From Candidatus Heimdallarchaeota archaeon (lineage in GTDB: Archaea; Asgardarchaeota; Heimdallarchaeia; Heimdallarchaeales; Heimdallarchaeaceae), in contig DAOVET010000069.1 in the NCBI GenBank assembly GCA_030668825.1, positions 1-13,908 on the forward strand: DNA of 13,908 nt, given 5' to 3'. The notes under the pieces were generated by a model, which did no database searches, had not been told where the DNA came from, and saw only the letters and a list, made by a program, of their open reading frames with translations. Of the stretch, positions 1 through 13,908 are shown piece after piece. Numbering within the stretch: position 1 is the stretch's first letter; each line of letters opens with the position of its first letter. A program made the translations under genes and the position numbers.

Positions 1-956
1 AGTTCCTCGTTACTTGCTATCCTCAGCTGTTCTACAACTAAGTCAATTCCTGTGATCATCTCAGTAACAGGATGTTCAACTTGAATTCTTGGATTAATCT
101 CATTGAAAAAAATATCACCATCTTTCCATAGAAACTCTGCTGTTCCAGCATTCTTATAGTCAATCTTTTCAGCAAGACTGCAAATCTTTTCACCCAAGCT
201 ATTTCTTTTGCGAACTGAAAGAAAGGATGGAGCTTCTTCAATGATTTTTTGATAAGAACGTTGGATGGAACATTCTCTATCTCCAATGTGAATTGAATTT
301 TGATGATTATCAGCTAGAAATTGTATTTCAACATGTCTAGGAGCGGAAATATATTTCTCAATAAACACTTTATTATTTCCAAAGAATTTGTCAGCGATTG
401 TTTGACAACCTAACAAGCTTATTTCAAGAGCTTCTGGATTTTCAACAATTTCCATCCCTCTTCCTCCTCCTCCGAAAGCTGCCTTTATGATAATTGGATA
501 TCCAATATTTTCACCAATTTTTTCTGCTTCAGATAGTGACGATACATAACCATCAGAACCAGGAATTGTTGGAATACCGATTTCCTTTGCTATTCTCTTT
601 GATTCAACTTTATCGCCTAAATTCCTTAGAACTGTAGGAGAAGGTCCTACAAATACCATTCCCTCCTTCTCAACCCTCTCAGCAAAATCTGGGTTTTCAC
701 TAAGAAAACCGTAACCTGGATGGATTGCATCTGCACCAGAAGTTAATGCGATTTCAATTATTTTTTCTACATTCAGATAAGTTTCTTGTACCGTACCTTT
801 GCCAAGACTATATGCTTCATTGGCCATTTTTACATGGAGAGAAGTAGAATCTTCTTTAGAAAAAATAACTATGCTTTTTAGGCTGAGTAAACGACATGCT
901 CGTATAATTCGAACAGCTATTTCTCCACGATTGGCTATAAGCACAGTACCAAGCAT
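1..956 (-). CDS. Biotin carboxylase subunit (acetyl/propionyl-CoA or pyruvate carboxylase; AccC/PycA family), partial, runs off the left edge
   Basis: Absent from the ORF track because there is no stop in the window. Manual translation from ATG 956 gives MLGTVLIANRGEIAVRIIRAC...ADAIHPGYGFLSENPDFA...YPIIIKAAFGGGGRGM...EKYISAPRHVEIQ...DRECSIQRSYQKIIEEAP...NAGTAEFL...NEINPRIQVEHPVTEMITGIDLV. All the hallmark biotin carboxylase motifs are present. Confidence 0.96.
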   Translation of the reverse strand, partial: MLGTVLIANRGEIAVRIIRACRLLSLKSIVIFSKEDSTSLHVKMANEAYSLGKGTVQETYLNVEKIIEIALTSGADAIHPGYGFLSENPDFAERVEKEGMVFVGPSPTVLRNLGDKVESKRIAKEIGIPTIPGSDGYVSSLSEAEKIGENIGYPIIIKAAFGGGGRGMEIVENPEALEISLLGCQTIADKFFGNNKVFIEKYISAPRHVEIQFLADNHQNSIHIGDRECSIQRSYQKIIEEAPSFLSVRKRNSLGEKICSLAEKIDYKNAGTAEFLWKDGDIFFNEINPRIQVEHPVTEMITGIDLVVEQLRIASNEE

Positions 957-979
957 AAAGGTATAAATCCCTTGACATT

Positions 980-987
980 TATATAAA
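980..987 (-). promoter_or_regulatory. Archaeal TATA box (TTTATATA) for the biotin carboxylase gene, likely leaderless mRNA
   Basis: TTTATATA on the minus strand begins 31 nt before ATG 956, with an A-rich BRE-like run upstream. Confidence 0.6.
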
Positions 988-1044
988 ATTTTTGTGTTTT
1001 ATAGCCCAAAAAATACTATTCCTGAAATAACATTTAGAAGACTT

Positions 1045-2274
1045 CTAATTAATGAAATTAGTACTCTTATCAGAAGTAATTGTTTTAGCTTTTAGCATGT
1101 TTTTCCATCGTTCTACTAAATTGATAAAAGCAGTTTCTGTACTATTATCTAGTTCAAAATTATCCTCTAATTGTAAGTTGAAGAATTCTAGATTCAAAGT
1201 TTTTTTATCAAAATTAACCTCTATTCTGCCTATGAGTTTACCTTGGAAAAGCAATGGGTAGACATAGTACCCCCATTTTCTATCTTTAGGAATTTTGTAG
1301 ACTTCCCAAACATAATCAAAATTAAATACCTTCAGAGTTAAATCTCTGTCCCAAATTAATGGATCAAGTGGAGCTATAGCTCTCATATTACCATCTAAGT
1401 CTTCTTTAAGAAAATCTTTCCAATTATAGGGAACAGCTACACCCCATTGTTCTCCTTCTGTTTTTAAGATGTGAGGACCTTTATCAGAATAATTTGTTCT
1501 AAACCATTCAGGTGAGATTCTTTTCTTTTTTCCAACAAATAAAGAACCAGTCTTTGAAATTGAAACCTTGCCTAGAGTAATCAGAGGATAAGATTTCTGT
1601 TTAATGAGAAATTTCTCATAACTAATTTCTTCATGTGTTAAATCTATTTTTTCTAGTAACACTGATTCGAAATATTCTTCTGTTAAGTAGTAAATTTTTC
1701 TCCAGTTTTCATCTCTACAAGAAATAATAACTCTGCCTTGAACCCACAATATCTCAAGAGACATACCTGCCAAATTACTAGTTTTCCAGAAGGAGAACTC
1801 TGGTTTGATTTTAGCCATTTCTCCAATATCTGAAGCTTTTGAAGGTCCATTTTCTTGAAGGAATTTCACTGCTTCTTCAAGTATCCCTAAATGTATTTTT
1901 TCTACTTTCTCTAAACGAGATTGATAATATTTTTGTAAATACTCTTTCTTCATTTGAGATAAGAATAAAGGAAAATGCTCTTTTGAAATTGCCATTAAGT
2001 TTGGGAAGTAAGCCTCAAAAACTAATTTCTTTGGGTAAACTATTTTCTGAAATGTATCTATTTCATAATTTCTTATTCTGCTCTGAAAGAAAAGGTCATG
2101 ATTCCTTCCAGCTGGATTCAAAGGATCTAGCTGAACCAATGCTTGTTGCTTGAAAACAGATTGTATATCTTCTGTACTCTCCCCTTGCCATTTATGAAGA
2201 TGTGTTCCAACAACAGCAATATGTTGCAAATCTTCTTTTGTCACTTCATGAATTTGAAATTCAGACACATTCAC
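1045..2274 (-). CDS. ycaQ: YcaQ/AlkZ-family (HTH_42) interstrand-crosslink DNA glycosylase
   Basis: N-terminal QxD catalytic motif in LVQLDPLNPAGRNHDLFFQSRI; central wHTH; C-terminal APLDPLIWDR...FNFDYVWEVY...RKWGYYVYPLL...LIGRIE signature. GTG start. Confidence 0.88.
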   Translation of the reverse strand: MNVSEFQIHEVTKEDLQHIAVVGTHLHKWQGESTEDIQSVFKQQALVQLDPLNPAGRNHDLFFQSRIRNYEIDTFQKIVYPKKLVFEAYFPNLMAISKEHFPLFLSQMKKEYLQKYYQSRLEKVEKIHLGILEEAVKFLQENGPSKASDIGEMAKIKPEFSFWKTSNLAGMSLEILWVQGRVIISCRDENWRKIYYLTEEYFESVLLEKIDLTHEEISYEKFLIKQKSYPLITLGKVSISKTGSLFVGKKKRISPEWFRTNYSDKGPHILKTEGEQWGVAVPYNWKDFLKEDLDGNMRAIAPLDPLIWDRDLTLKVFNFDYVWEVYKIPKDRKWGYYVYPLLFQGKLIGRIEVNFDKKTLNLEFFNLQLEDNFELDNSTETAFINLVERWKNMLKAKTITSDKSTNFIN

Positions 2275-2341
2275 ACCAGCGGAATAAGTTAATGATGTCT
2301 CAGAGGACCTTTTTGAATATTTAAAGAAAATGGAAGATTTG

Positions 2342-3592
2342 TTAACTTACTTGAAGAAAATAATCTAACTTTGTTTGCCTTTTAGTCAAATCATAGAGCT
2401 TGGAACGGTATTTCCAATTTTTGAGAGGATAATCAAACTTCTTCCCAGCGACCTCAAAAGCAGAATCTATATTATCAAAAGTCATGTATTTACTTTTCAT
2501 TGCTTCTCTTACAGCTAATCTGATTACCCAAACCCCTAGTGGGAATCTATATTCATCAGAAATTTCTCTTAAAACTATTGCTTGAGACTGTCTCTTGATT
2601 TTAAGCAGATATTCAGTTATACCTAACCTTGCTGCGTAGTAAGCTCCAGTGATGTTTGAAGCATAATCTGTACGACCATTATACCCTTCCCAATCTTCAA
2701 CTGCTATATCTTTATCACTAGGATTCATGAAGGCTCCTCTGAACCAAGTTTCAATCATTTCATAGGACCAAACATCTGGAATTAGAATAATAACAAATCT
2801 ATTTCCAAAGAAGTTGTAGGTAAAAACTCTAAATTCTCCTAATTCAGGAAGAAGTTTTACCTTCTCTACATTTTGTTTTGAAAGAATATCGTCTACAGCT
2901 GTTATACTCCATCTGGTTGGAACAAGTTTGCGATTATCCTTTCGTCCTATCATACCTGCTGAAAAGACTCTAGTGATGGTACTTTCATCTAACTTCTCTT
3001 TCCCCATGTAGGAGACAGCATCAGTAGCTAAGAGATCTGTATCATAATAGCTCCTTTCAATAGCATTAATCGGAGATTGATTTTCTGTTATGTCCATTGT
3101 TTTTATAGGTACAATAGGTCCATGTGGCGCCATTCTCTCATCAAGACTAATTCTGGGAATAATCTTTCTTTCAAGTTGAACTTCTACATCAATAGCTTTT
3201 TTTCCTAAAAGCAATTCTTGACTTTTTTGGACAATATCAGAATCAAGAGGTCGTTTAACATTAATTTTAGCATGGGTTCTCAGAAGAGAAATACGCATTT
3301 TTACAATATCTTCTTGAGACTTCTTCAACCAATTCCGAGAGTTGTCAATGACATCAGAAGCAACTCTATTTGCAGTTAACATGGGACCTGCATTTATTCT
3401 AGGATACCCTGTCCATCCAACAAAGAAGGAAGGGGGAGAAAAGGTTTCGTCAAGATTCTGGATTTTTGGCTGCTCAATGCTGTATTGTTTTGACCAGTTC
3501 TGTAATAAAGGACATGATTTCCTCCCACATAAACCTCTGGAGGTTTTGCAAATTACACATAATTCGAAATTTATATCGGAATTATCATCCAT
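2342..3592 (-). CDS. nreA: Nre-family archaeal DNA repair protein with C-terminal PCNA-interacting (PIP) motif
   Basis: Motifs CVICKTSRGLCGRKSCP, SPPSFFVGWTGYP, RKLVPTRWSITAVDD, GAYYAARL, LREISDEY..PLGVWVIR and C-terminal QTKLDYF. The start was moved from the track's TTG at 3667 to ATG 3592 (MDDNSD...), which sits just before the Cys cluster and 37 nt downstream of TTTTAATA (3629-3622). Confidence 0.93.
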   Translation of the reverse strand: MDDNSDINFELCVICKTSRGLCGRKSCPLLQNWSKQYSIEQPKIQNLDETFSPPSFFVGWTGYPRINAGPMLTANRVASDVIDNSRNWLKKSQEDIVKMRISLLRTHAKINVKRPLDSDIVQKSQELLLGKKAIDVEVQLERKIIPRISLDERMAPHGPIVPIKTMDITENQSPINAIERSYYDTDLLATDAVSYMGKEKLDESTITRVFSAGMIGRKDNRKLVPTRWSITAVDDILSKQNVEKVKLLPELGEFRVFTYNFFGNRFVIILIPDVWSYEMIETWFRGAFMNPSDKDIAVEDWEGYNGRTDYASNITGAYYAARLGITEYLLKIKRQSQAIVLREISDEYRFPLGVWVIRLAVREAMKSKYMTFDNIDSAFEVAGKKFDYPLKNWKYRSKLYDLTKRQTKLDYFLQVS

Positions 3593-3621
3593 ACTGGTCA
3601 GAATAACTGAATTTTTTTTAC

Positions 3622-3675
3622 TATTAAAAGCTGATGTAGATAAAATAATATTGAAAAAAGGCAACACTTTTATTC
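3622..3675. promoter_or_regulatory. Divergent promoter region with back-to-back TATA-like boxes for nreA (-) and the Rag-like GTPase (+)
   Basis: TTTTAATA on the minus strand at 3629-3622; TTTTATTC on the plus strand at 3668-3675, 30 nt before ATG 3698. Confidence 0.45.
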
Positions 3676-3697
3676 TTCTTTACTTCAAGATTATAAT

Positions 3698-4285
3698 ATG
3701 AGCTATCTTGAGAATGAAATAGCTGATGATGATGTTCTAATCAAAGATTTAGATAAAGGCGAATTTGGTTCTAAATTGCTCTTCATAGGTTTAGCTCAAA
3801 CAGGTAAAACTTCTATAATTCAGGTTGTTTTCGAAAATAAAGCTCCTGAAACAACTTCAAAAATACCTGCAACTGTTGGAGTAAGAAGAAAATTGGTAGA
3901 TTTTTCAGATATTTCTCTGAATGTCTATGATGTAGGGGGACAAATAACCTACTTAGAAGAAGCTTTTGTTGATTTGCGCGAGAGTATATTCACGAGAATT
4001 AAAATTCTGTTTTTTGTAGTTGATTCTTCTAAATATGGAGATTTTGAAACAGCAAAGATGTATTTTAGAAGAGCTATTAGGAATCTTAATGAATATAGCC
4101 CTGAAGGAAAGATGGTTGTTTTAGCTCACAAAATGGATTTAATTCCAACAGAAGAAAGAGAAAAAACAATTAGTTTTATATCTAAAATTTTCGAATTGGA
4201 AGATTATTCAGAAGTAGAAATATTTGAAACTTCAATTTATGAGGAAACTTTAGTGGATGCTATAGAGAAAGCTCTTGGGATATAA
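3698..4285 (+). CDS. Rag/Gtr1-like small GTPase (G domain only)
   Basis: G1 GLAQTGKTS, G2 PATVG, G3 YDVGGQ, G4 HKMD, G5 TSIYEETL. HKMD and TSIxxETL match RagA/Gtr1 (HKMD, TSIWDETL). There is no C-terminal roadblock domain. Confidence 0.88.
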   Translation: MSYLENEIADDDVLIKDLDKGEFGSKLLFIGLAQTGKTSIIQVVFENKAPETTSKIPATVGVRRKLVDFSDISLNVYDVGGQITYLEEAFVDLRESIFTRIKILFFVVDSSKYGDFETAKMYFRRAIRNLNEYSPEGKMVVLAHKMDLIPTEEREKTISFISKIFELEDYSEVEIFETSIYEETLVDAIEKALGI

Positions 4286-4345
4286 TTATTGTCTATACAA
4301 ATACTAAAATAGTTATTTACATTTTTTCTTCGACAAAAAGAATCC

Positions 4346-4462
4346 CTTATAAAACTATCTGTTGACCTCGAAGAGAGAGAAGAACATCAAGAAGGAAAAT
4401 TTGGTTGGATTATGGATCCTGAGGGTAATAAAATAGAATTATGGGAACCACCAGAAAAATAA
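4346..4462 (+). pseudogene. C-terminal remnant of a VOC/glyoxalase-family gene
   Basis: The frame reads ...SVDLEEREEHQEGKFGWIMDPEGNKIELWEPPEK*, a classic VOC C-terminus. An in-frame TAG lies at 4310-4312 and there is no usable start upstream of the conserved part. A T-rich terminator follows. Confidence 0.8.
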
Positions 4463-4463
4463 T

Positions 4464-4482
4464 CTCCTTTTTTTTCTCTCTT
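4464..4482 (+). terminator. Oligo-T/pyrimidine-tract terminator
   Basis: CTCCTTTTTTTTCTCTCTT lies directly after TAA 4462. Confidence 0.5.
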
Positions 4483-4549
4483 AAAAAACTCCATGACTTT
4501 TGGAATAAATTTTTAATACTTCATTTTACACTAAACTAAAGGTGTTATT

Positions 4550-6736
4550 ATGGTTATCAAGGAATTTACATACAAAGTTCCTGAAATGTCTAATGGATAT
4601 GCGAATCAAACTCTTTACATTAATCTAGATAATTATGAGATTAAGACTGAAGAAGTAACAGATGAAATGAAAAAGAAGTTCACTGGCGGAAAAGGGTTTG
4701 ATTTATTTCTAATGTGGAAATATCTTCCTAGATATGAAAGAACAGAATGGGATGATTCAGCTAATGTTTTGTGTATTGCAGGGGGACCTTTAGGTGGTAC
4801 TACCAACTTTCCTGGATCTGGAAAGAGTATAGTAACTGCTATATCTCCTCTTACAGGTTTAATAATTGACTCTAATGTCGGAGGCTATTTCGGACCTTTT
4901 GCAAAGCATTCAGGTTTTGATGCTATTGCTATCCAAGGAAAAGCTGACAAAGAAGTTTACATCTACATTGACGGTGAAGAAGGAAAGATAATAATTGAAG
5001 AAGCTGAAGATCTTCCTTCAGAAACCTACAAGATTGGAACGATTCTTACAGAAAAGTATTGTGGAGAAGAGAAATTTAAGCGAGATGTTTCAGTTGTTTC
5101 AGCAGGACCAGGAGCTAAAAATACTCGTTGGGGCTGTTTGAATTTTAGCTATTATGATCCGCGAAGAGGATATGTAAGGTACAAACAAGCAGGACGAGGT
5201 GGAACTGGAACTGTCTTCAGAGATAAAAAACTGAAAGCTCTAGTTGTCAAAAAAATAGGTGTTGTAACCAGGACTAATAATCCAGCTGACCCAGAAGCAC
5301 TGAAAGAAATAGGTAAAAAGCACACTAAAGAAATGATAGACCTCGATCCTAAACAAAATGAAATGAGAATGGTTGGTACTACTCATCTTGTACCAATAAT
5401 GAACGATTATGATCTATTACCAACTAAAAACTTCAAGTATGGGCGCGATCCTCAAGCTATTAAAATAGGATCGGAAGTATATAGACAACTTTTCTTGAAA
5501 GGTCCTGATCCATGTTGGAAAGGTTGTGCAGTTGCATGTACACACGGTGTCAATGGATTTGAACCAAGAACTGGGCCTTATGCAGGTCAGAAGGTTTCAG
5601 TTGATGGACCTGAATATGAAACAATTGCTGGTGTAGGTTCAAATTGGTATGTTTGGGATCCCGAAGATATCATTGAAACAAACTTCTATTGTGATAATTA
5701 TGGATTAGACACAATTTCTATAGGAACTGGGATTGCTTTTGTCATGGAATGTTATGAATATGGCATTCTAGATAAAGAGAAAACTGGAGGGCTTGAACTC
5801 AACTGGGGAAATCAGGAAGCTGCTATGGAACTAATTCATCAAATGGCAAGGAATGAAGGTTTTGGGAAGATTGTAGGTCAAGGTATTCGAAGAATGAAAA
5901 AATACTTTGCAGAGAAATTTGGTGGAGATCCCAAATTACTAAATGACATTGGTATGGAATCTAAAGGTTTGGAGTTTAGTGAGTATATGACTAAAGAATC
6001 TTTAGCTCAGCAAGGTGGATATGGGTTTGCACTCAAAGGACCACAACATGATGAGGCTTGGTTAATCTTCGAAGATATGGTTAGAGGGAATCTACCAACT
6101 TTTGAGAAAAAAGCAGAAGCACTACATTGGTTCCCAATGTGGAGAACCTCCTTTGGACTTCTGGGGTTATGTAAATTGCCTTGGAATGACATTGTTCCCG
6201 AAGATAATAGAGATTTTGCAGCAGGAAAAATACGCAAGGAAGGGGCATTTGTTCCTGATGATTTAGCTGATCCTGCAAAAATTCCTGAACACGTTCAAAA
6301 TTATGTTAAATACTATACAGCTGTAACTGGTAATGAAATTGATTCAGTTGAATATATCCGTATGAGTGAGCGAGTTTACAATTTCCAAAGAACACTTAAC
6401 TTAATGCTCATTCCCCCAGGTGTAACCTTTAGAGATCTAGACTCTATCCCTTATAGAGCAATGGGTCCAGTAACAAAGGAAGAATTTCTATCACGTGAAG
6501 AAGAGTATTATTCCAAACAACTGAGAGAAGAGATTGGTGTTGATCCAGATGAGATGAGCATTTCAGAAAAGATGAATGCTATTCGTAAATTTAGAGAAAG
6601 CAATTATGAGAAACTCAAGAACGCTGTTTACGAAAGAAGAGGATGGGATAAAAACGGTGTGCCTACAAAAAAGAAAATCAAGAAACTAGGTATGGATTAT
6701 CCTGAGATTATTGAGCTAATTGAGCAGAATCAATAA
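4550..6736 (+). CDS. aor: Tungsten-dependent aldehyde:ferredoxin oxidoreductase (AOR/WOR family, long type)
   Basis: Motifs SPLTG..DSNVGGYFG, SGFDAI.IQGKA, AGRGGTG.V...KKLKA, Fe-S Cys motif CWKGCAVAC, GPEYET, CDNYGLDTIS, GLCKLPW and YERRGWDKNGVP. SD-like AGGTG lies just upstream. Confidence 0.95.
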   Translation: MVIKEFTYKVPEMSNGYANQTLYINLDNYEIKTEEVTDEMKKKFTGGKGFDLFLMWKYLPRYERTEWDDSANVLCIAGGPLGGTTNFPGSGKSIVTAISPLTGLIIDSNVGGYFGPFAKHSGFDAIAIQGKADKEVYIYIDGEEGKIIIEEAEDLPSETYKIGTILTEKYCGEEKFKRDVSVVSAGPGAKNTRWGCLNFSYYDPRRGYVRYKQAGRGGTGTVFRDKKLKALVVKKIGVVTRTNNPADPEALKEIGKKHTKEMIDLDPKQNEMRMVGTTHLVPIMNDYDLLPTKNFKYGRDPQAIKIGSEVYRQLFLKGPDPCWKGCAVACTHGVNGFEPRTGPYAGQKVSVDGPEYETIAGVGSNWYVWDPEDIIETNFYCDNYGLDTISIGTGIAFVMECYEYGILDKEKTGGLELNWGNQEAAMELIHQMARNEGFGKIVGQGIRRMKKYFAEKFGGDPKLLNDIGMESKGLEFSEYMTKESLAQQGGYGFALKGPQHDEAWLIFEDMVRGNLPTFEKKAEALHWFPMWRTSFGLLGLCKLPWNDIVPEDNRDFAAGKIRKEGAFVPDDLADPAKIPEHVQNYVKYYTAVTGNEIDSVEYIRMSERVYNFQRTLNLMLIPPGVTFRDLDSIPYRAMGPVTKEEFLSREEEYYSKQLREEIGVDPDEMSISEKMNAIRKFRESNYEKLKNAVYERRGWDKNGVPTKKKIKKLGMDYPEIIELIEQNQ

Positions 6737-6741
6737 TCGGA

Positions 6742-6760
6742 TTTTTTTTTCTTTTTTTTC
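6742..6760 (+). terminator. Oligo-T archaeal terminator
   Basis: TTTTTTTTTCTTTTTTTTC starts 5 nt after the aor stop codon. Confidence 0.7.
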
Positions 6761-6933
6761 AATTTTCATTCATTTGTCAACAGGTTTAGCTTAATAAGAA
6801 AATTTTTCTTTCGTGGACATTTGTACTAGGAATATACTAAAGGTTAAATAGTTCGTTTCAACTTATGCTTAAACTAGAAGTGTTAGCGGGGATTCAAATT
6901 TCTAGCATTTTTAGGTGATGGGGTAATACCAAA

Positions 6934-7485
6934 ATGAGTTTCTTAGCGAATTTATTTTCCAGAACAAAGATGGAAAAAAAAGCTAAAGTACTGATACTAG
7001 GTTTAGCTTCTGCTGGAAAGACTACTCTTACTAAATATCTAAGATACGGTGAATTTGTTTCAGATACAATACCAACAATAGGTCAAAATATCGATTCTTT
7101 AGAACATGAAGGTTGGAAAATTACAACTATAGATGTAGCAGGACAACAAGATTTTCGCTTTTTGTGGGATGCCCACTACCCAGGAACATCTGCAGTCATC
7201 TTTGTAATTGATGCAGCTGATATTGAAACTTTACCTGAAGCAAGAGATATTTTCAAGCAACATGTTTTCAATAACCCTACACTTCAAAAAGTTCCAGTGT
7301 TAATTCTGGCAAATAAACAAGATCTTCAAGGTGCAGTTGATGCTCCTCTTCTAATACAATTATTAGGATTACATCTTGATATGCATAATAGAACCTTTGC
7401 TGTGTTTGACTCAAGTATCTTGTATGGTAGAGGTGTTGTTGAAGCTTTTAGTTGGATTGTTAATCAGCTTGAAACTAATGAATAA
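6934..7485 (+). CDS. Arf/Arl-like small GTPase with N-terminal amphipathic helix
   Basis: MSFLANLFS helix; G1 GLASAGKTT; switch I TIPTIGQN (Arf has TIPTIGFN); DVAGQ; RFLWDAHY (Arf has RPLWRHY); VIFVIDAAD; ANKQDL; G5 SSILYGRGV..AFSWI. SD-like AGGTGAT at 6913-6919. Confidence 0.92.
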   Translation: MSFLANLFSRTKMEKKAKVLILGLASAGKTTLTKYLRYGEFVSDTIPTIGQNIDSLEHEGWKITTIDVAGQQDFRFLWDAHYPGTSAVIFVIDAADIETLPEARDIFKQHVFNNPTLQKVPVLILANKQDLQGAVDAPLLIQLLGLHLDMHNRTFAVFDSSILYGRGVVEAFSWIVNQLETNE

Positions 7486-7487
7486 AT

Positions 7488-7504
7488 CTTTTTTTATCTC
7501 TTTT
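7488..7504 (+). terminator. Oligo-T terminator
   Basis: T-tract CTTTTTTTATCTCTTTT lies just after TAA 7485. Confidence 0.5.
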
Positions 7505-7586
7505 ACTAGTTATATTGAAATTTCTGACAAAAATACTTCGCTTTAATTTGTCAGTTATGAAGCTTTAAAAACAGTCCAAAACTTGA

Positions 7587-8108
7587 ATGAGTATGAAAAA
7601 AGCGTTAAAGATTTTCTTTATTGTATTTATACCTCTGATACTGGGTATTGCAGCATTTGGAGGTACAATACTTTACTCGTACTTGAAGGTAGATTACTCT
7701 GTTGGAAATCCAGCAGTAACATTTGATATCACACCAGATTTTGTCGAAGGATATATCGGTTTTATAACTCTAACAACTCCTGCGGAAATAAGTAATAATG
7801 GTGTTTACTCGATAAGAGATCTGAATATTACAATTACAGTAGTTGGTGCCAATTTTTCTTTATCCTCTTTGAATGGTGCTCTTCTAGCTAGTGGTGAGAA
7901 TCTTCTAGGGGATATTAATCCTGGAGAAATTTGGGCTGATGATATCATCTTACAAGTAACTTATTCAATCCCTCTTCTAGCAATTCAAGATGGTGATTTC
8001 ATTATAACAATTTATGTTGGCTTAAAGGTAGATTTCTATATTTTTAAAATTCCTATTAATATTGAAACTGTATCTTATGTTGAATGGGATTCTCCTTTTG
8101 GATTCTAA
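7587..8108 (+). CDS. Hypothetical protein with one N-terminal TM anchor and an acidic beta-rich domain (possibly LEA_2/Ig-like)
   Basis: Basic N-terminus, a hydrophobic helix (IFFIVFIPLILGIAAFGGTILY), then alternating beta-strand patterns (ISNNGVYSIRDLNITITV). The true start may be ATG 7593, 29 nt after TTTAAAAA at 7564. Confidence 0.7.
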   Translation: MSMKKALKIFFIVFIPLILGIAAFGGTILYSYLKVDYSVGNPAVTFDITPDFVEGYIGFITLTTPAEISNNGVYSIRDLNITITVVGANFSLSSLNGALLASGENLLGDINPGEIWADDIILQVTYSIPLLAIQDGDFIITIYVGLKVDFYIFKIPINIETVSYVEWDSPFGF

Positions 8109-8165
8109 TTCTTCTTTTTCAGAAATCTATTTATTTAAGCTAATTAATCGCCATTTGAAGAAGCT

Positions 8166-9275
8166 ATGAGCACAGAAGACCAGTATATAGATAAAGATAA
8201 ATTGCACACATTTATGAAAGCTGTTTTTGTTGGTTTAGGCTACCCTGAAGAACAAGCTAAAGTCAGTGCTGATGTATTGATTGAATCAGATCTTAGAGGG
8301 ATTCGTTCACACGGTGTTCAGAGGTTAAAATATTATTATGTGAGAGTTAAATCTGGTCAACACCTTGTTGCAGATTTTGAAATAATCAAAGATAAAGAAG
8401 CAACAGCTGTAATTGATGGAAAACATGGGAATGGACATTATATCTCCTACCAAGCAATGGAATTAGCAATAGATAAAGCTAAGAAGTATGGAATAGGAAT
8501 GGTTGTTGTTAGAAATAGTACTCATTATGGAATAGCGGGTTATTATCCTTTAATGGCAATTAAAGAAGGATGCTTGGGAATAACAGGAACTAATGCACGT
8601 CCAGCTGTTGCACCAACTTTTGGAGGAGAGCCAATGTACGGAACAAATCCACTAACATTTGGTTTTCCAACAGATGAGGATTTTCCATTTGTCTTGGATT
8701 GTGCTACATCAATTATCCAGAGAGGAAAAGTGGAAATTGCAGCAAGAGATAATACTCCTTTACCCGATGGAGTTGTTATCGATAGAGAAACTGGTCAGAG
8801 TAGGACTGATGCAGCTCAGTTGCTAAAAGATTTTGTTGAAAACAAAGCTGCTCTACTAGCATTAGGTGGAGCTGGGGAAGAGTTGTCTGGGCATAAAGGA
8901 TATGGATATGCAACAGTAGTAGAAATTTTATCTGCAGCTTTACAAGGGGGAGTTTTCCTGAAAGAACTGTCTGGACTAGATAAAGATGGGAACAAAGTTC
9001 ATTTCAAAGTAGGTCATTTCTTCATAGCAATTGATCCTGAATTCTTCATGGGTCTTGATAACTTTAAATCAATAGCTGGAGGTATCTGTAGAGGGCTAAG
9101 GAATTCAGACAAAGTACCAGATGCTATTAGAATCTACACTGCTGGAGAAAAGGAATTTGATGCAGAAAAAGAGGTTAAGGAAAAAGGTGTTCCATTGAGT
9201 AGGAGCATCCAAGAAGATCTAGTATCCATGAGAGATGAGTTAGGATTAAAGGAATATACTTTCTCTTTTGAATAA
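8166..9275 (+). CDS. Ldh_2-family (malate/L-lactate/L-sulfolactate type, ComC-like) NAD(P)-dependent oxidoreductase
   Basis: Motifs SDLRGIRSHGVQRL, AIDKAKKYGIGMVVVRNSTHYGIAGYY, GTNPLTFGFP, FVLDCATS, GHKGYG, GHFFIAIDP and IYTAGEKE. Confidence 0.93.
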   Translation: MSTEDQYIDKDKLHTFMKAVFVGLGYPEEQAKVSADVLIESDLRGIRSHGVQRLKYYYVRVKSGQHLVADFEIIKDKEATAVIDGKHGNGHYISYQAMELAIDKAKKYGIGMVVVRNSTHYGIAGYYPLMAIKEGCLGITGTNARPAVAPTFGGEPMYGTNPLTFGFPTDEDFPFVLDCATSIIQRGKVEIAARDNTPLPDGVVIDRETGQSRTDAAQLLKDFVENKAALLALGGAGEELSGHKGYGYATVVEILSAALQGGVFLKELSGLDKDGNKVHFKVGHFFIAIDPEFFMGLDNFKSIAGGICRGLRNSDKVPDAIRIYTAGEKEFDAEKEVKEKGVPLSRSIQEDLVSMRDELGLKEYTFSFE

Positions 9276-9284
9276 AATATACTC

Positions 9285-10421
9285 TCAGACTCTATCTCTA
9301 ACTATCTCTTCTGGAGGAACAAAGGGGAAAACTTGGCGAACGATATCATCTGCTCTTTCAAATTGTGCAACATTCCCATCAAATTTGCTGATAGCAGATT
9401 TGAACATTTCACAGAAGTTCTCAGTGAAATGCTTTGCAGCTGTTTGAAGGATCCACGCATCGCTATCACTGATGATTAGGGTAGTGATATTTCTCTCTTT
9501 ATTCTCTACAACAATGAGTTTCTTATCTCTAAAACTAACTTTTCTTAAGTCCGTTTTAGCACCCGTTGTTTCAGAAATAAGGTACTTCAAAGCAGTAACT
9601 GTACCAGTGACGAGAATATCTTGATGAACTCTTTCAATTTCCTTAGTTCCTATACTTACAGAATAAAGCAAGAGTCCAGCATCATTGAAGATGAGTATTT
9701 TGTTGATTTTAGCAGGTAAGAGATAAACGTAGAAAGGATTGAAGATGAAAGCTAAAGCTAAAATGCCAAAAGTCAAACTGAAAGGGATGGCTCCATATAC
9801 TTGAAAGTAATTTTGTGTCCATCGTTCAAAAATCTTTAGAAAAGCTGCAATAAAGCCAATTCCTGTAGCAGTAGCAATGATAAAGCTAACACGTTTGAGT
9901 TTCTTATATTCTGCACGTATTGTGTCTTGTATATAAACATAAAACGCTTCACCTAAAACAAAAGCCTGGAAGATATTAAGGATAATTCTTGATACTCTGT
10001 ATTCAGGTTCAATCAAACTATATTCAATTTTGTAAACAAGTTCAAGAATAAGCACAATAAGATAACTTCCAATCAATGTTGAAGCTGTAGCTAGCAAGAA
10101 TGTATTGGGTTTTTCATGACGCATGAATTCCAAATAGAGAAACAGAACGAACAAAGCAATTGCTGAAGGGATCATATGAATCTCTAAAAGGGAACTTGCG
10201 TTAACTCTGTCACTATAATCCAAATAACCATAAACATACCAAAGAATGAAAATAATTATCTCAAATATACCTTGTAAGATAACTAGTCCAAATAACCAAA
10301 TAAACCAAGTGAAGCCAGTAATTTTATCCCTATATCTTCTATACATGAAATAACCTAGAATTAAAGAGATTATACCCATTTGAACAAGCTTAATCCATAG
10401 TTCACTAAGACTAGAAGCCAT
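9285..10421 (-). CDS. Seven-TM membrane protein fused to a C-terminal longin-like domain
   Basis: Seven hydrophobic segments in about aa 8-232, ending FIFNPFYVY. These are followed by ILIFNDAGLLLYS...DILVTGTVTALKYLISE...LRKVSFRDKKLIVVE...TTLIISD...AKHFTENFCEMF, the beta-beta-alpha-beta-beta-beta-alpha pattern of Asgard longin-like domains. Confidence 0.78.
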   Translation of the reverse strand: MASSLSELWIKLVQMGIISLILGYFMYRRYRDKITGFTWFIWLFGLVILQGIFEIIIFILWYVYGYLDYSDRVNASSLLEIHMIPSAIALFVLFLYLEFMRHEKPNTFLLATASTLIGSYLIVLILELVYKIEYSLIEPEYRVSRIILNIFQAFVLGEAFYVYIQDTIRAEYKKLKRVSFIIATATGIGFIAAFLKIFERWTQNYFQVYGAIPFSLTFGILALAFIFNPFYVYLLPAKINKILIFNDAGLLLYSVSIGTKEIERVHQDILVTGTVTALKYLISETTGAKTDLRKVSFRDKKLIVVENKERNITTLIISDSDAWILQTAAKHFTENFCEMFKSAISKFDGNVAQFERADDIVRQVFPFVPPEEIVRDRV

Positions 10422-10443
10422 AGCATAAATTATAACGTGCCTT

Positions 10444-10451
10444 CATATAAA
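10444..10451 (-). promoter_or_regulatory. TATA box for the 7TM-longin gene (leaderless)
   Basis: TTTATATG on the minus strand begins 30 nt before ATG 10421. Confidence 0.6.
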
Positions 10452-10470
10452 TTTAGCGTAGTATAAGCTA

Positions 10471-10571
10471 GAAGGAAAACGAGTTGGGAAGGGATGGGGG
10501 TCCCTTCCATAAGCTCTGCTGGTGGTTAAAAACTAGCGAGGATGCTAGCGGTGATATGTGGAGCATATCAC
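10471..10571 (-). ncRNA. Candidate ~100-nt structured small RNA with three hairpins
   Basis: GC-rich island with perfect stems at 10551-58/10564-71 (8 bp), 10533-37/10544-48 (5 bp) and 10487-94/10501-08 (8 bp plus a basal extension). A minus-strand TTTAAATA at 10600-10593 begins about 29 nt before the first stem, and a U-rich tail (GUUUUCCUUC) follows the last. Confidence 0.45.
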
Positions 10572-10713
10572 ATTAGATATGCAAGAAATAAGTATTTAAA
10601 CACCAAGATTTTTGGAGAAGTTGAAAAACCAGTCAATTTTTAATCTTAACGTCTCCAAACGTTATTTTGTGTAGTTAAGGACACAATAAACACTATATGT
10701 TTGTGATGGAAAT

Positions 10714-10721
10714 TTTATATA
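10714..10721 (+). promoter_or_regulatory. BRE-TATA promoter for the wHTH gene (leaderless)
   Basis: GGAAAT followed by TTTATATA, which begins 30 nt before ATG 10744. Confidence 0.65.
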
Positions 10722-10743
10722 GAGTCTTTCATTAGATATTTCG

Positions 10744-11112
10744 ATGGATTCTGAAGTAGAGAAAAATGATTACGAACTATTCCTATTACTGAGTACTCTA
10801 GGAGCAAACAAAATAAGAGCAGTGCTGATACTAGCTCATCTCTACCCAAAAGCCATTACAGCAACCCAATTATCTACTCTACTAGGATATTCGATGAAAG
10901 CTAGAACAATCTACAGAGGAATACTAGATGACTTGCAAGAAAGAGAACTGATCTTTCTAGACAAACTGACTCCGAAGGTGGCAAGCATTAGATTAAATCA
11001 TGAAAATGATCTCCTTAAGCGTTTAATAGAATTAGCTAAATCACATGGTGCGGACTACCTTAAAGTGATAGATGATTTGATGGGAAAGAAAAATGAAGAT
11101 GAGAACTACTGA
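10744..11112 (+). CDS. Winged helix-turn-helix protein (ArsR/TrmB/MarR-like), putative regulator
   Basis: NKIRAVLIL...KAITATQLSTLLGYSMKARTIYRGILDDLQERELI followed by a beta-hairpin wing (FLDK...ASIRLN). Confidence 0.72.
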   Translation: MDSEVEKNDYELFLLLSTLGANKIRAVLILAHLYPKAITATQLSTLLGYSMKARTIYRGILDDLQERELIFLDKLTPKVASIRLNHENDLLKRLIELAKSHGADYLKVIDDLMGKKNEDENY

Positions 11113-11707
11113 AGTCCAGTCATTGCTTAGGGCGGACAAAGGGATATCCAGAAATTGGATGAAGATTATTCTCTATACCATTTTAGGCGTATCAATAATC
11201 TTGTTAACGGTTTTTCTAGCTTCTTTTAGTGCTTCAGATTCAAGAGTACCCTTTACTATTTTTACACGAGAATTTCAAGATCAGGTAATAATTTTTACAG
11301 GCATAGACGCCCCAAAAGTTGAAGGGCTTGGTAAGCTGTTTAATGAACAATTACCTGGATGGTCTGTTTACCCCTTGATTTTCGCATGTTTGGGATTCTT
11401 GTCTTATCTCTCAGTAACATATATTAGTAGAAAAATGATCTTTGAAAACAAAAATTGGTTAACAAATTTACAAAAACAAGGATTGGTTCAAAATTATAGT
11501 GCTTTTAGCGATTTAATAATAACAACTAAAGCTGGGAAAATAATCATCTCTAAAAGCAATATGAGATACAAAATTAAACTACCAAAAATGGACAATTATG
11601 ATTTAACTAAATTCGGTTTAGTGCTTTCAGATCATACTCTAACAGGTTTCTGTTCTAAAGAGGAATTATCTAGTATAATTCACATCTATCTTTCGAAGGT
11701 TAACTAA
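11093..11707 (+). CDS. Hypothetical two-TM membrane protein with a basic cytoplasmic C-terminal domain
   Basis: TM1 IILYTILGVSIILLTVFLASF and TM2 WSVYPLIFACLGFLSYLSVTYI. It overlaps the wHTH gene by 20 nt, suggesting translational coupling. Confidence 0.7.
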   Translation: MKMRTTEVQSLLRADKGISRNWMKIILYTILGVSIILLTVFLASFSASDSRVPFTIFTREFQDQVIIFTGIDAPKVEGLGKLFNEQLPGWSVYPLIFACLGFLSYLSVTYISRKMIFENKNWLTNLQKQGLVQNYSAFSDLIITTKAGKIIISKSNMRYKIKLPKMDNYDLTKFGLVLSDHTLTGFCSKEELSSIIHIYLSKVN

Positions 11708-11854
11708 ATACTTCTCAGAATATCCTGTGATTCTATATCCTACTGTCATTAACTTGCTAATTCCACTCTCCATTTAGAGGTAGACTAGTAGGTTTCCAGT
11801 AAGGAGAATATTCTCCAATTCAATCAATCTTTTGTGTAGTTGCTTTATAGTTGC

Positions 11855-13246
11855 TTAACTGCCCTTTATAGTTATTTCAGTTGGTGGTTGAGCTGTAGTT
11901 GCAGTTACGTCATTACCATTACCATTTCCATTAGTGGCGATGTGCTCACGGAGATAGGATCCATTTTTCTTGTAGTCACCGTATGTTCCATTTGCAAGCT
12001 TATAGTTGATGTTTTCAATGACACTATCGTACATCCATTCATCATCTGTTTTCCAACCTTTCTTAGCCCAATCATAGCTGTCAAATTCGAATGTCCAATA
12101 CGTTCCATGTTTTCCAAAGAAATCTAGGGAGTATATTTTATAATCCTTAAATGAACTCCAGATAAGATAATTTATCTTAGAATCATAGTAAGGAGGCATT
12201 GAGAGCCTAAGAAATATTCCTTTGTTAAAGAGTTCAAAAAATGTTTGGAAGGGAATTTTTTCTTCATTTAAGAAGCGGAAAATTTGTGCTTTTTCTTGTT
12301 CAGGAATGTTCTCAATAAAATATGCTCTAGTTACATGTTGTTCAGACAGTTTTCGACTAAAGTTCCATCTAGGATTAGTTATAAGGTTGTTGAAAACCAA
12401 GCTGTAATACTTTCTGCCGAATTCTACTTTAGCTGCATCAGAGACGATGACTTTACCGTTTTCATTTTTAGGCATGTTCTTAGTATCGAAAAACGAACTA
12501 AGATTGTAAAGACAGGCTTCTTCAGCATCTGTTAACTTAATCTTCTTTGCCAAACTCTCGTAATAATCTCTATAATGTTTGACAAGTTCAGTTTGTTTTG
12601 ATCGGATATCAATAGTGGTACCATTTCTAACAGATGTTGTTAAGTCTCTTAATAGCATGAAATGAAGTGGTTCAATTAAATTAGAATCTATAGCAGAAGG
12701 TAGTCTAGGTAGTGTGGTACTCTTGTTAAGTCTCTTTTCCCAGAAAGAGATTACATCGAATTTTAATTTTTCAGGTTCGGAGGAGTAGCTTTTAAGTGGC
12801 TCAGGTTGAGACAAACGATAGCCCATAGATTTCATGATGAAATAGCTATCACAATACTCTTCGTTCAACAGATATTCAAGATATTTGGTGAAAATTGCTT
12901 CAGTGTTTGGTGGAAGATCAAAATGGGCATAAATTCCGAAGTTTTCCCCATAAAAGCGATTATACGCTCGAATATATTTGTGTTCAGATAGGGCGTTCTG
13001 TAACAATGTAAACTGGTGGAGAGAAGAAATTGAGAACATTACACCATATCTGGATAGGGAAAGTCTTTCAGGAATAAATGAAGCAATTGGAAAACGAAGT
13101 ATCTCTTTTTTCTTAAGTGATTCAACGCGACGAATCATGGTCTGTGGAGAAATACCAAGCCTTTCAGCCTGTTTAGAGTATGGTTCAAGTGTATAGTTTT
13201 GCAACACATTTAAGATTTTTTGATCAAGTATGTTCAGTTGATCCAT
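11855..13246 (-). CDS. Large Lrp/AsnC-like transcriptional regulator (N-terminal wHTH plus RAM-like domain, apparently duplicated)
   Basis: LNILDQKILNVLQ...EPYSKQAERLGISPQTMIRRVESLKKKEIL is an Lrp/AsnC HTH. A ferredoxin-like segment follows (YNRFYGENFGIYAHFDLP). The second half starts IEPLHFMLLRDL and has another beta-alpha module. SD-like GAGG lies 8 nt upstream of the ATG. Confidence 0.75.
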   Translation of the reverse strand: MDQLNILDQKILNVLQNYTLEPYSKQAERLGISPQTMIRRVESLKKKEILRFPIASFIPERLSLSRYGVMFSISSLHQFTLLQNALSEHKYIRAYNRFYGENFGIYAHFDLPPNTEAIFTKYLEYLLNEEYCDSYFIMKSMGYRLSQPEPLKSYSSEPEKLKFDVISFWEKRLNKSTTLPRLPSAIDSNLIEPLHFMLLRDLTTSVRNGTTIDIRSKQTELVKHYRDYYESLAKKIKLTDAEEACLYNLSSFFDTKNMPKNENGKVIVSDAAKVEFGRKYYSLVFNNLITNPRWNFSRKLSEQHVTRAYFIENIPEQEKAQIFRFLNEEKIPFQTFFELFNKGIFLRLSMPPYYDSKINYLIWSSFKDYKIYSLDFFGKHGTYWTFEFDSYDWAKKGWKTDDEWMYDSVIENINYKLANGTYGDYKKNGSYLREHIATNGNGNGNDVTATTAQPPTEITIKGS

Positions 13247-13311
13247 TTAAGTTCCTCTTTATTTTTTGTGTAGTTTTTTTGAAGTGCAAGAAACAACAGG
13301 AACGAAAGTAG

Positions 13312-13375
13312 GGAGTTATACAAGAAATGCATATATGTATAGTAGATACAATATGCGAAATCCTGTACAAGCTCC
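13312..13375 (-). promoter_or_regulatory. Long imperfect RNA hairpin upstream of the Lrp-like gene (candidate 5' leader element)
   Basis: Minus strand: GGAG-C-UUGUACAGGA-UUUC-GCAUAU-UGUAU-CUACU-AUACA-U-AUAUGC-AUU-UCUUGUAUAA-CUCC. This gives 25 bp, including two G-U wobbles that only form on the minus strand. Confidence 0.45.
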
Positions 13376-13403
13376 TCTCTTTTTTCCCCAGTTGAGAGAA
13401 CCC

Positions 13404-13419
13404 ATTTAGACCTCTAAAT
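13404..13419. promoter_or_regulatory. Perfect 7-2-7 inverted repeat, candidate operator
   Basis: ATTTAGA-CC-TCTAAAT. Confidence 0.3.
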
Positions 13420-13608
13420 ATTGTTTCTTGTGGTTTGACCCCTTGTTTTTGAGTTCAGTTTTAACTGGTGTGCCAGAACCTTTCCAAAGGAAATCAGGAG
13501 GGACGTCACGACCTCACGGACGTCTCCATATTCCTTTATTCGCCGAGAATTTGAGGAAAGGGGGTGGGGTTTTCTGGCGATTCTTAGTTTTAATTTTTGT
13601 CAGCGTGA

Positions 13609-13908
13609 TTAGATCTTGAAAGCTCCATATGCGTGAGAACCTATTGGCTCTAATGGACCTGCTCCTCCAGGAAGTAATTCTCCTATTGGTTCATCTTGTA
13701 CTGGACCTGCTCCTCCAGGAAGTAAGTCTCCTATTGGTTCATCCTGTACTGGACCTGCTCCTCCAGGAAGTAATTCTCCTATTGGTTCATCCTGCACTGG
13801 ACCTGCTCCTCCAGGAAGTAATTCTCCTATTGGTTCATCCTGCACTGGACCTGCTCCTCCAGCAAGTAATTCTCCTATTCGTTCATCATGCACTGGACCT
13901 GCACATAC
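13609..13908 (-). CDS. 3' end of a protein made of 16-aa tandem repeats (VQDEPIGELLPGGAGP); start lies beyond the window edge
   Basis: The frame is open to position 13908 (VCAGPVHDERIGELLAGGAGP...), so the track's GTG 13893 is probably not the start. Differences between the four inner units fall on third codon positions (GTG/GTA, CAG/CAA, GAA/GAC), which supports this frame. Confidence 0.75.
   Translation of the reverse strand, partial: VCAGPVHDERIGELLAGGAGPVQDEPIGELLPGGAGPVQDEPIGELLPGGAGPVQDEPIGDLLPGGAGPVQDEPIGELLPGGAGPLEPIGSHAYGAFKI
13655..13902. repeat. 48-bp tandem repeat, five full units plus partial units
   Basis: GGACCTGC recurs at 13655, 13703, 13751, 13799, 13847 and 13895, an exact 48-bp period with no spacers. 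Confidence 0.97.

Follow-up and report, generated by a model that had tools for sequence, protein, structure and literature searches.

Can an archaeon couple a receptor-like membrane bundle to a small GTPase through a single protein? The question is raised by one gene in a stretch of 13,908 nucleotides (hereafter, the window; contig DAOVET010000069.1 of assembly GCA_030668825.1, positions 1 to 13,908 of the forward strand) from Candidatus Heimdallarchaeota archaeon, a member of the Heimdallarchaeaceae. An earlier note, made from the letters alone, had read the product of this gene, P0001, as a receptor analogous to a G-protein-coupled receptor (GPCR), with seven transmembrane (7TM) helices and a longin-like domain as its only output. 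Our findings confirm the 7TM-longin architecture in a conserved Heimdall-group gene, and structural modelling points to a longin fold and to a putative GPCR-type helix arrangement; the proposed coupling to a small GTPase has so far found no tie in gene context. The gene and the parts of its product are arranged as follows.

9285..10421, minus strand: the whole gene, encoding the 378-residue 7TM-longin protein P0001 (open reading frame and translation, 41 homologues, 27 genomic loci).
9726..10409, minus strand: membrane domain, residues 5-232, with seven helices and a putative outside N-terminus.
9891..9917, minus strand: basic turn between TM5 and TM6, RAEYKKLKR, residues 169-177, predicted to be cytoplasmic (from the translation; five Lys/Arg in loop 165-180).
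9708..9797, minus strand: TM7 and junction, residues 209-238 (YGAIP...NPFYVYLLPAKI), more conserved than any other region and common to all distant relatives.
9330..9707, minus strand: predicted cytoplasmic longin-fold domain, residues 239-364, in the order strand-strand-helix-strand-strand-strand-helix-helix.
9306..9329, minus strand: C-terminal tail motif FPFVPPEE, residues 365-372, with invariant columns in the orthologue alignment.

The reading frame is uninterrupted over its 378 codons and begins with ATG. A word-indexed search returned 41 homologues (45-94% identity, most spanning 99-100% of the query), for which every source name given is Heimdallarchaeota or Heimdallarchaeaceae, and the genome collection holds 27 related loci, with the two complete genomes of Ca. 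Heimdallarchaeum represented at 48% identity. Thus, P0001 is the product of a real gene. Pfam and NCBIfam scans of the protein gave no match; it therefore has no catalogued output domain of any sort, the lack of a kinase or cyclase having been noted before.

The membrane part bears out the earlier helix count. Hydropathy, scanned over 19 residues at a time, marks out seven hydrophobic segments (approximately residues 8-26, 37-60, 77-99, 108-128, 146-164, 180-198, and 208-234), and a full-length AlphaFold2 model built on 23 orthologues (mean predicted local distance difference test score, pLDDT, 74.9; predicted TM-score, pTM, 0.75) places seven helices at 5-32, 37-63, 77-101, 107-130, 143-169, 173-197, and 211-232. 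Lysine and arginine number four, two, and five in loops 27-36, 100-108, and 165-180, compared with none, one, three, and two for the N-terminal end and the remaining loops; by the positive-inside rule alone, this distribution points to an outside N-terminus and a cytoplasmic C-terminal domain, in line with the N-out topology proposed before. Hydropathy, charge distribution and model together describe seven helices with, by that rule only, the N-terminus outside and the C-terminus inside, as in GPCR-fold receptors. The RAEYKKLKR turn retains its basic character in the 23 orthologues, with Leu175 invariant. At the inner end of TM7, residues 228-233 read NPFYVY, also as noted earlier, and Asn228, Pro229, Val232, and Tyr233 are invariant across the same set. 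Column entropy in TM7 and the junction (0.59-0.60) is the lowest of all regions, the first outer loop being the most variable. Several polar residues within the helices are likewise invariant in the orthologues: Glu7, Lys11, Gln14, Gln50, Glu54, Glu80, His82, Glu98, Asn149, Gln152, Asp166, Lys196, and Glu199.

In structure comparison of the AlphaFold2 model, the membrane part has a putative GPCR-type helix arrangement. Its best structural match is the bitter-taste receptor TAS2R46 (7xp4_R), accompanied by Ste2 and by class C and class A receptors. Unlike GPCRs proper, P0001 matches no Pfam GPCR family and no solved receptor in sequence, and a profile of the whole family gave no match for the membrane part among PDB sequences. 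Class A GPCRs carry two signature motifs, DRY and NPxxY; in P0001 the NPFYVY stretch occupies residues 228-233, and no DRY is seen at the inner end of TM3.

The soluble C-terminal part comprises residues 236-378 (143 amino acids, close to the ~140 first estimated). We judged it from the full-length model only. The predicted elements are strands 239-246 and 251-257, helix 268-286, strands 292-297, 300-307, and 312-318, and helices 323-345 and 351-364, that is, a five-stranded sheet without an N-terminal helix and in the order expected of a longin, as a prediction in which parts fall below pLDDT 50. Whole-domain superposition on solved longin domains ranks above that on other folds. The top Foldseek rows against the PDB are all longins: AP-2 sigma (6owo_S; E 3.4e-3, target TM-score, TMt, 0.61), Trs23, Sec22b (TMt 0.65), sedlin, COPZ1, and Mon1-Ccz1, although no row for the domain reaches E<=0.001; the roadblock proteins LAMTOR, MglB, and dynein LC7 occupy lower ranks. 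Model topology and Foldseek ranking thus support a predicted longin fold, rather than roadblock or PAS. Among eukaryotic longins, the domain is comparable to the N-terminal domains of Sec22b, VAMP7, and Ykt6, to AP sigma and COPI zeta, to the TRAPP subunits Bet5, Trs23, sedlin, and synbindin, and to Fuzzy-Inturned, Mon1-Ccz1, and SRX; it differs from them in being placed behind a seven-helix membrane bundle and in matching no Pfam longin family at threshold. In longin SNAREs the order is opposite to that of P0001, the longin coming first, followed by the SNARE motif and one C-terminal anchor.

At the level of sequence, the longin assignment leaves only faint traces. None of the Pfam longin families Sybindin (PF04099), Fuz_longin_1 (PF19036), and Intu_longin_1 (PF19031) exceeds its gathering cut-off in P0001, and their matches in relatives and paralogues all stay below cut-off (E 6.7e-4 to 0.09). 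The Sybindin model finds nothing in the source genome either, a result made uninformative by controls that are likewise silent. Profile searches of PDB sequences gave weak signals to Bet5 (E 0.023) and Trs23 (E 0.036), and no sequence kinship of the P0001 family to solved proteins. The roadblock fold deserves separate mention, as roadblock/LC7-MglB platforms (MglB-MglA, Ragulator-Rag) have a strand-strand-helix-strand-strand-strand core in common with the P0001 domain. Against the six Robl_LC7-type proteins of the same genome (five above the Pfam cut-off, one below), hhalign indicates remote similarity of this core at a probability of 62% (E 7.4e-5, 78 columns), which fits the kinship of longin and roadblock folds described in the main text of PMC10933270. 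Yet, P0001 has no Pfam match to roadblock/LC7 (PF03259), and no roadblock chain occurs among the 50 matches listed in the VIA structure comparison. Moreover, it is without a soluble N-terminal helix and has two C-terminal helices, the longin arrangement as defined, in distinction to roadblock, in the main text of that source. In the tail that follows the domain, Phe365, Pro366, Phe367, Pro369, Pro370, and Glu372 are invariant columns in the 23 orthologues (alignment A1), and Phe365 (domain column F130, alignment A2) is the sole residue invariant across the wide family.

P0001 belongs to a large Asgard family that is not yet catalogued, and represents its Heimdallarchaeaceae branch. Only the Heimdallarchaeaceae have full-length orthologues (E<1e-150), with matches at E<=1e-5 in 28 of their 30 genomes; sister families of the order hold full-length homologues at 25-29% identity. 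Distant relatives and paralogues align from approximately residue 200-235 onward, sharing the last helix with its junction and the longin domain; this unit, sought with an orthologue profile, is present in 324 of the 400 Asgard genomes searched. An exhaustive search yielded 310 representative clusters at E<=1e-3; the domain is present in 146 of the 148 examined, ending no more than 40 residues from the C-terminus in 139. By a crude hydropathy count, at least five hydrophobic segments lie upstream in 87 of the 146, most of these proteins being 350-380 residues long; other clusters have zero to two upstream segments, or reach 750-1640 residues. Thus, the constant unit of the family is last helix, junction and longin, and its commonest form a multi-helix protein of ~350-380 residues. 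Named members come from Loki-, Hel-, and Heimdallarchaeota, with one record labelled Methanomassiliicoccales. The source genome alone holds 18 matches to the domain profile, including stand-alone forms of ~145 residues, a second 7TM-type paralogue, an Arf GTPase fused to the domain, and six or seven fusions with tetratricopeptide repeats (TPR; six clear matches, one weak).

Further members were met in passing. On contig C67 (5-6307; L040, L041, and L042), three consecutive genes encode proteins of ~680-730 residues with TPR repeats and a C-terminal longin-like domain, and more TPR-longin genes lie on contigs C102, C33, C109, and C137 of the same genome. In Ca. Heimdallarchaeum, a diverged second multi-helix-longin paralogue stands beside or near the first (L021, 10974-12080; L026, 9279-10439).

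Searches of the literature on longin, roadblock, transmembrane, 7TM and GPCR proteins of Asgard archaea gave no published description of a 7TM-longin fusion, although the supplements of papers may list the family. A passage in a 2026 preprint (10.64898/2026.10.28.762692) counts "7TM proteins", as well as a cluster called "class C GPCR", among Asgard-eukaryote families, and cites either Eme 2023 or Liu 2021 for the former; neither "7TM" nor "longin" occurs in the main text of Eme 2023.

What could such a protein do? The single most likely mechanism, to which we give a probability of roughly 45%, is that of a membrane-tethered longin domain acting as a docking platform for a small GTPase. A seven-helix bundle with its N-terminus outside would be joined, via the conserved last helix and junction (YGAIP...NPFYVYxxP), to the cytoplasmic longin, a link that would hold the longin against the cytoplasmic side of the cell membrane. 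The tethered domain would thus offer a membrane-resident platform to a soluble partner, most plausibly one of the ~30 small Arf-, Rag-, or Rab-like GTPases of the genome, by analogy with well-studied longin platforms, and could recruit or regulate it as an anchor or as a co-factor of a guanine nucleotide exchange factor or a GTPase-activating protein. The bundle would fix the site of action and may also relay a signal, since the orthologues keep polar and charged residues within the helices and the whole-chain pTM is 0.75; the latter value also suggests that the two domains, as modelled, pack in a fixed way. Our analysis establishes that the gene exists and is conserved, that its product has seven helices, which folds are predicted for it, and how far the family extends; the topology (by a simple rule), the binding of a partner, GTPase specificity, if any, and ligand sensing, if any, are inferred.

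The GTPase part of this proposal draws on the known role of longins and on GTPase-longin fusions among the paralogues. The main text of PMC10933270 (Tran, Akil, Senju & Robinson 2024) presents longin domains as docking platforms of many GTPase regulators and reads longin/roadblock-GTPase fusions as a sign of functional interaction. The Asgard longin and roadblock proteins and fusions treated there belong to the same phylum and fold class as P0001, and the source genome has such a fusion, a 321-residue GTPase of the Arf family that carries a domain of this longin-like family at its C-terminus (L052, C97:27866-28831); one open reading frame in L171 likewise matches both the GTPase and the longin-family profiles. 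The main text of that source does not use the word "transmembrane", its proteins hence being soluble, whereas P0001 is membrane-embedded. At 2.7 kb from the fusion gene, L049 (C97:31532-32551) encodes a 339-residue protein with an N-terminal family domain and a faint Folliculin_C match (E 0.008).

The window itself offers two candidate partners, both of which the earlier note had counted as GTPases.

6934..7485, plus strand: Arf-like small GTPase, 183 residues, candidate partner only (Pfam Arf, E 3.5e-42).
3698..4285, plus strand: Gtr1/RagA-like small GTPase, 195 residues, candidate partner only (Pfam Gtr1_RagA, E 3.9e-36).

Orthologues of the Arf-like protein (65-97% identity) occur in 15 of the 27 related loci; near more distant homologues of the 7TM-longin gene, the Arf-like gene is absent. 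Its N-terminus, MSFLANLFSRTK, is conserved in orthologues and has no glycine at position 2; it resembles the N-terminal amphipathic helix of eukaryotic Arfs. Orthologues of the Gtr1/RagA-like protein (87-93% identity) are restricted to L001 and L002, the closest two of the 27 loci, other matches to this query being cross-matches of 23-25% on the Arf gene. In this GTPase HKMD replaces NKxD and, at only 195 residues, it goes without the C-terminal roadblock domain of eukaryotic Rags.

Several observations weigh against a GTPase platform. The Arf-like gene lies 1.8 kb away on the opposite strand, behind two genes (those for a 173-residue protein and Ldh_2), and is retained only among close relatives, within the same family, where the block of regulator, winged helix-turn-helix protein, 7TM protein, Ldh_2, Arf, and aldehyde:ferredoxin oxidoreductase is simply syntenic; L026, with sufficient flank, has the block without the Arf-like gene. 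Around full-length homologues at the level of the order (seven loci), none of 55 open reading frames has a GTPase Pfam match. Within the source genome, where 30 small GTPase genes were counted, two of the 15 genes of the domain family have one at a distance of up to 3 kb, compared with 6.9% of all open reading frames. Of 67 loci from across the phylum, hand-picked from listed profile matches with the Heimdallarchaeaceae excluded and several drawn from one genus, 4 have a GTPase gene within 2 kb, 6 within 3 kb, and 11 within 5 kb, at a model cut-off of E<=1e-8 that divergent GTPases may escape; per 10 kb, there are 0.177 GTPase genes inside the 3-kb radius compared with 0.188 outside it. Conservation of neighbours in these loci does not extend from one genus to another, synteny being confined to single genera. 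As for the protein, the polar helix residues are not retained in the wider family (alignment A5), confidence in the modelled longin part is moderate (pLDDT 42-83 by block; below 50 at 260-271 and 284-290), and the best structural matches include longins that act without GTPases, namely those of SNAREs and adaptor sigma subunits. Hence, neither GTPase enrichment near the family nor retention of the Arf-like neighbour beyond close relatives speaks so far for the proposed coupling. According to the main text of PMC10933270, Asgard GTPase genes generally do not stand in operons with longin or roadblock genes; the absent enrichment agrees with that arrangement and is therefore weak evidence against binding.

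Among other explanations, the one that survives best makes the bundle itself the working part, as a transporter, channel or membrane enzyme; the longin would then be only a cytoplasmic module for regulation or dimerisation, and GTPases would play no part. The many invariant charged and polar helix residues recall those of ion or substrate paths, the membrane part is conserved like the longin part (entropy 0.9-1.28 versus 1.12), and the lack of GTPase enrichment also speaks for it. Tandem paralogue pairs, found in five of the 67 loci (L123, L135, L148, L154, and L169), would fit hetero-dimeric longin pairs and thus dimerisation through the longin. We nevertheless hold this explanation doubtful.

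Rather improbable, in our estimate, is a tethered longin akin to those of SNAREs, adaptor sigma and zeta subunits or SRX, serving as a structural or cargo- or adaptor-binding part of a remodelling or targeting machine instead of a receptor-to-GTPase relay. Such a role is suggested by the best structural matches, which include the longins of Sec22b and VAMP7, AP-1/2/3 sigma, COPZ1, and SRX, by the scaffold-like appearance of the six or seven TPR-longin fusions of the source genome, and by TPR-longin genes near a TM-longin gene in L091, L142, L161, and L173. Yet, no SNARE motif or coat-subunit partner is seen in the gene or its surroundings, and SRX itself binds an Arf-like GTPase, leading back to a docking platform for a GTPase.

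Descent from 7TM sensor modules, with the output domain lost or swapped, is very improbable and at the sequence level largely refuted: although two neighbouring Atlas clusters are auto-named "Histidine kinase N-terminal 7TM region" and, among 60 relatives, one has a sub-threshold match that spans almost all of the HisKA_7TM profile (E 0.0074) and one matches 7TMR-DISM_7TM at E 0.085, the other 58 and P0001 have no such Pfam match, and hhalign of 32 family members (A5) against 15 true HisKA_7TM domains of the same class (A4, drawn almost wholly from one genus) gave a probability of 0.9% over 32 columns, so that the kinship of the membrane half to HisKA_7TM considered at the outset falls away. 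HisKA_7TM (PF16927) and 7TMR-DISM_7TM (PF07695) are likewise prokaryotic seven-helix N-terminal modules followed by a cytoplasmic domain; P0001 differs in showing no profile-profile homology to them and in having no kinase, cyclase or HD output.

The remainder of the window (G+C ~34%) is typical of the Heimdall group, with Pfam matches for biotin carboxylase, AlkZ-like, Nre, aldehyde:ferredoxin oxidoreductase, Ldh_2, and the two GTPases. One further element adjoins the 7TM-longin gene.

10445..10454, minus strand: AT-rich TATA-like element (AAATTTATAT), ~28 nt upstream of the ATG, read from the sequence.

This element is a possible archaeal promoter of the gene. Short contigs covering 9391-9682 derive from two runs labelled RNA-Seq but judged "probably DNA" and have no bearing on expression. 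Transcribed divergently from the 7TM-longin gene is an overlapping pair, 10744-11112 (plus strand) and 11093-11707 (plus strand), encoding a 122-residue protein and a 204-residue membrane protein, neither with a Pfam family; the former is 74-98% identical in 13 of the 27 related loci, exceeding the conservation of the 7TM gene, and is missing from the Ca. Heimdallarchaeum loci. The 173-residue protein between the Arf-like gene and Ldh_2 (7587-8108, plus strand) has a single N-terminal hydrophobic segment and no family match, with 65-94% identity in 9 of the 27 loci. Near the window edge, a tandem repeat at 13654-13902 (48-bp unit, 5.2 copies, 96% matches) encodes a 16-residue repeat (GELLPGGAGPVQDEPI) within an open reading frame (13609-13908, minus strand) that continues past the edge and adjoins the gene for a 463-residue protein with an N-terminal AsnC/Lrp-type helix-turn-helix (11855-13246, minus strand).

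Asgard genomes encode dozens of eukaryote-like small GTPases and many longin and roadblock proteins; in a passage of PMC11914678 on Asgard Arf proteins, their native regulators are said to "remain to be established". A wider claim, that GPCR-fold seven-helix receptors with a built-in longin output are widespread in Asgard archaea and recruit or switch Arf- or Rag-like GTPases at the cell membrane, is a long shot; if true, it would mean that a relay from receptor to G protein exists in prokaryotes, and the native regulators missing so far for Asgard Arf proteins would be provided by it. Should no GTPase bind, there would still be an uncatalogued, phylum-wide family of membrane proteins with a eukaryote-type domain. 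Overall, the family, in which a longin is fixed to the membrane behind a receptor-like bundle, has members in most Asgard genomes searched and offers concrete, clonable candidates for bringing GTPase switches to the membrane in those prokaryotes that are most closely related to eukaryotes.
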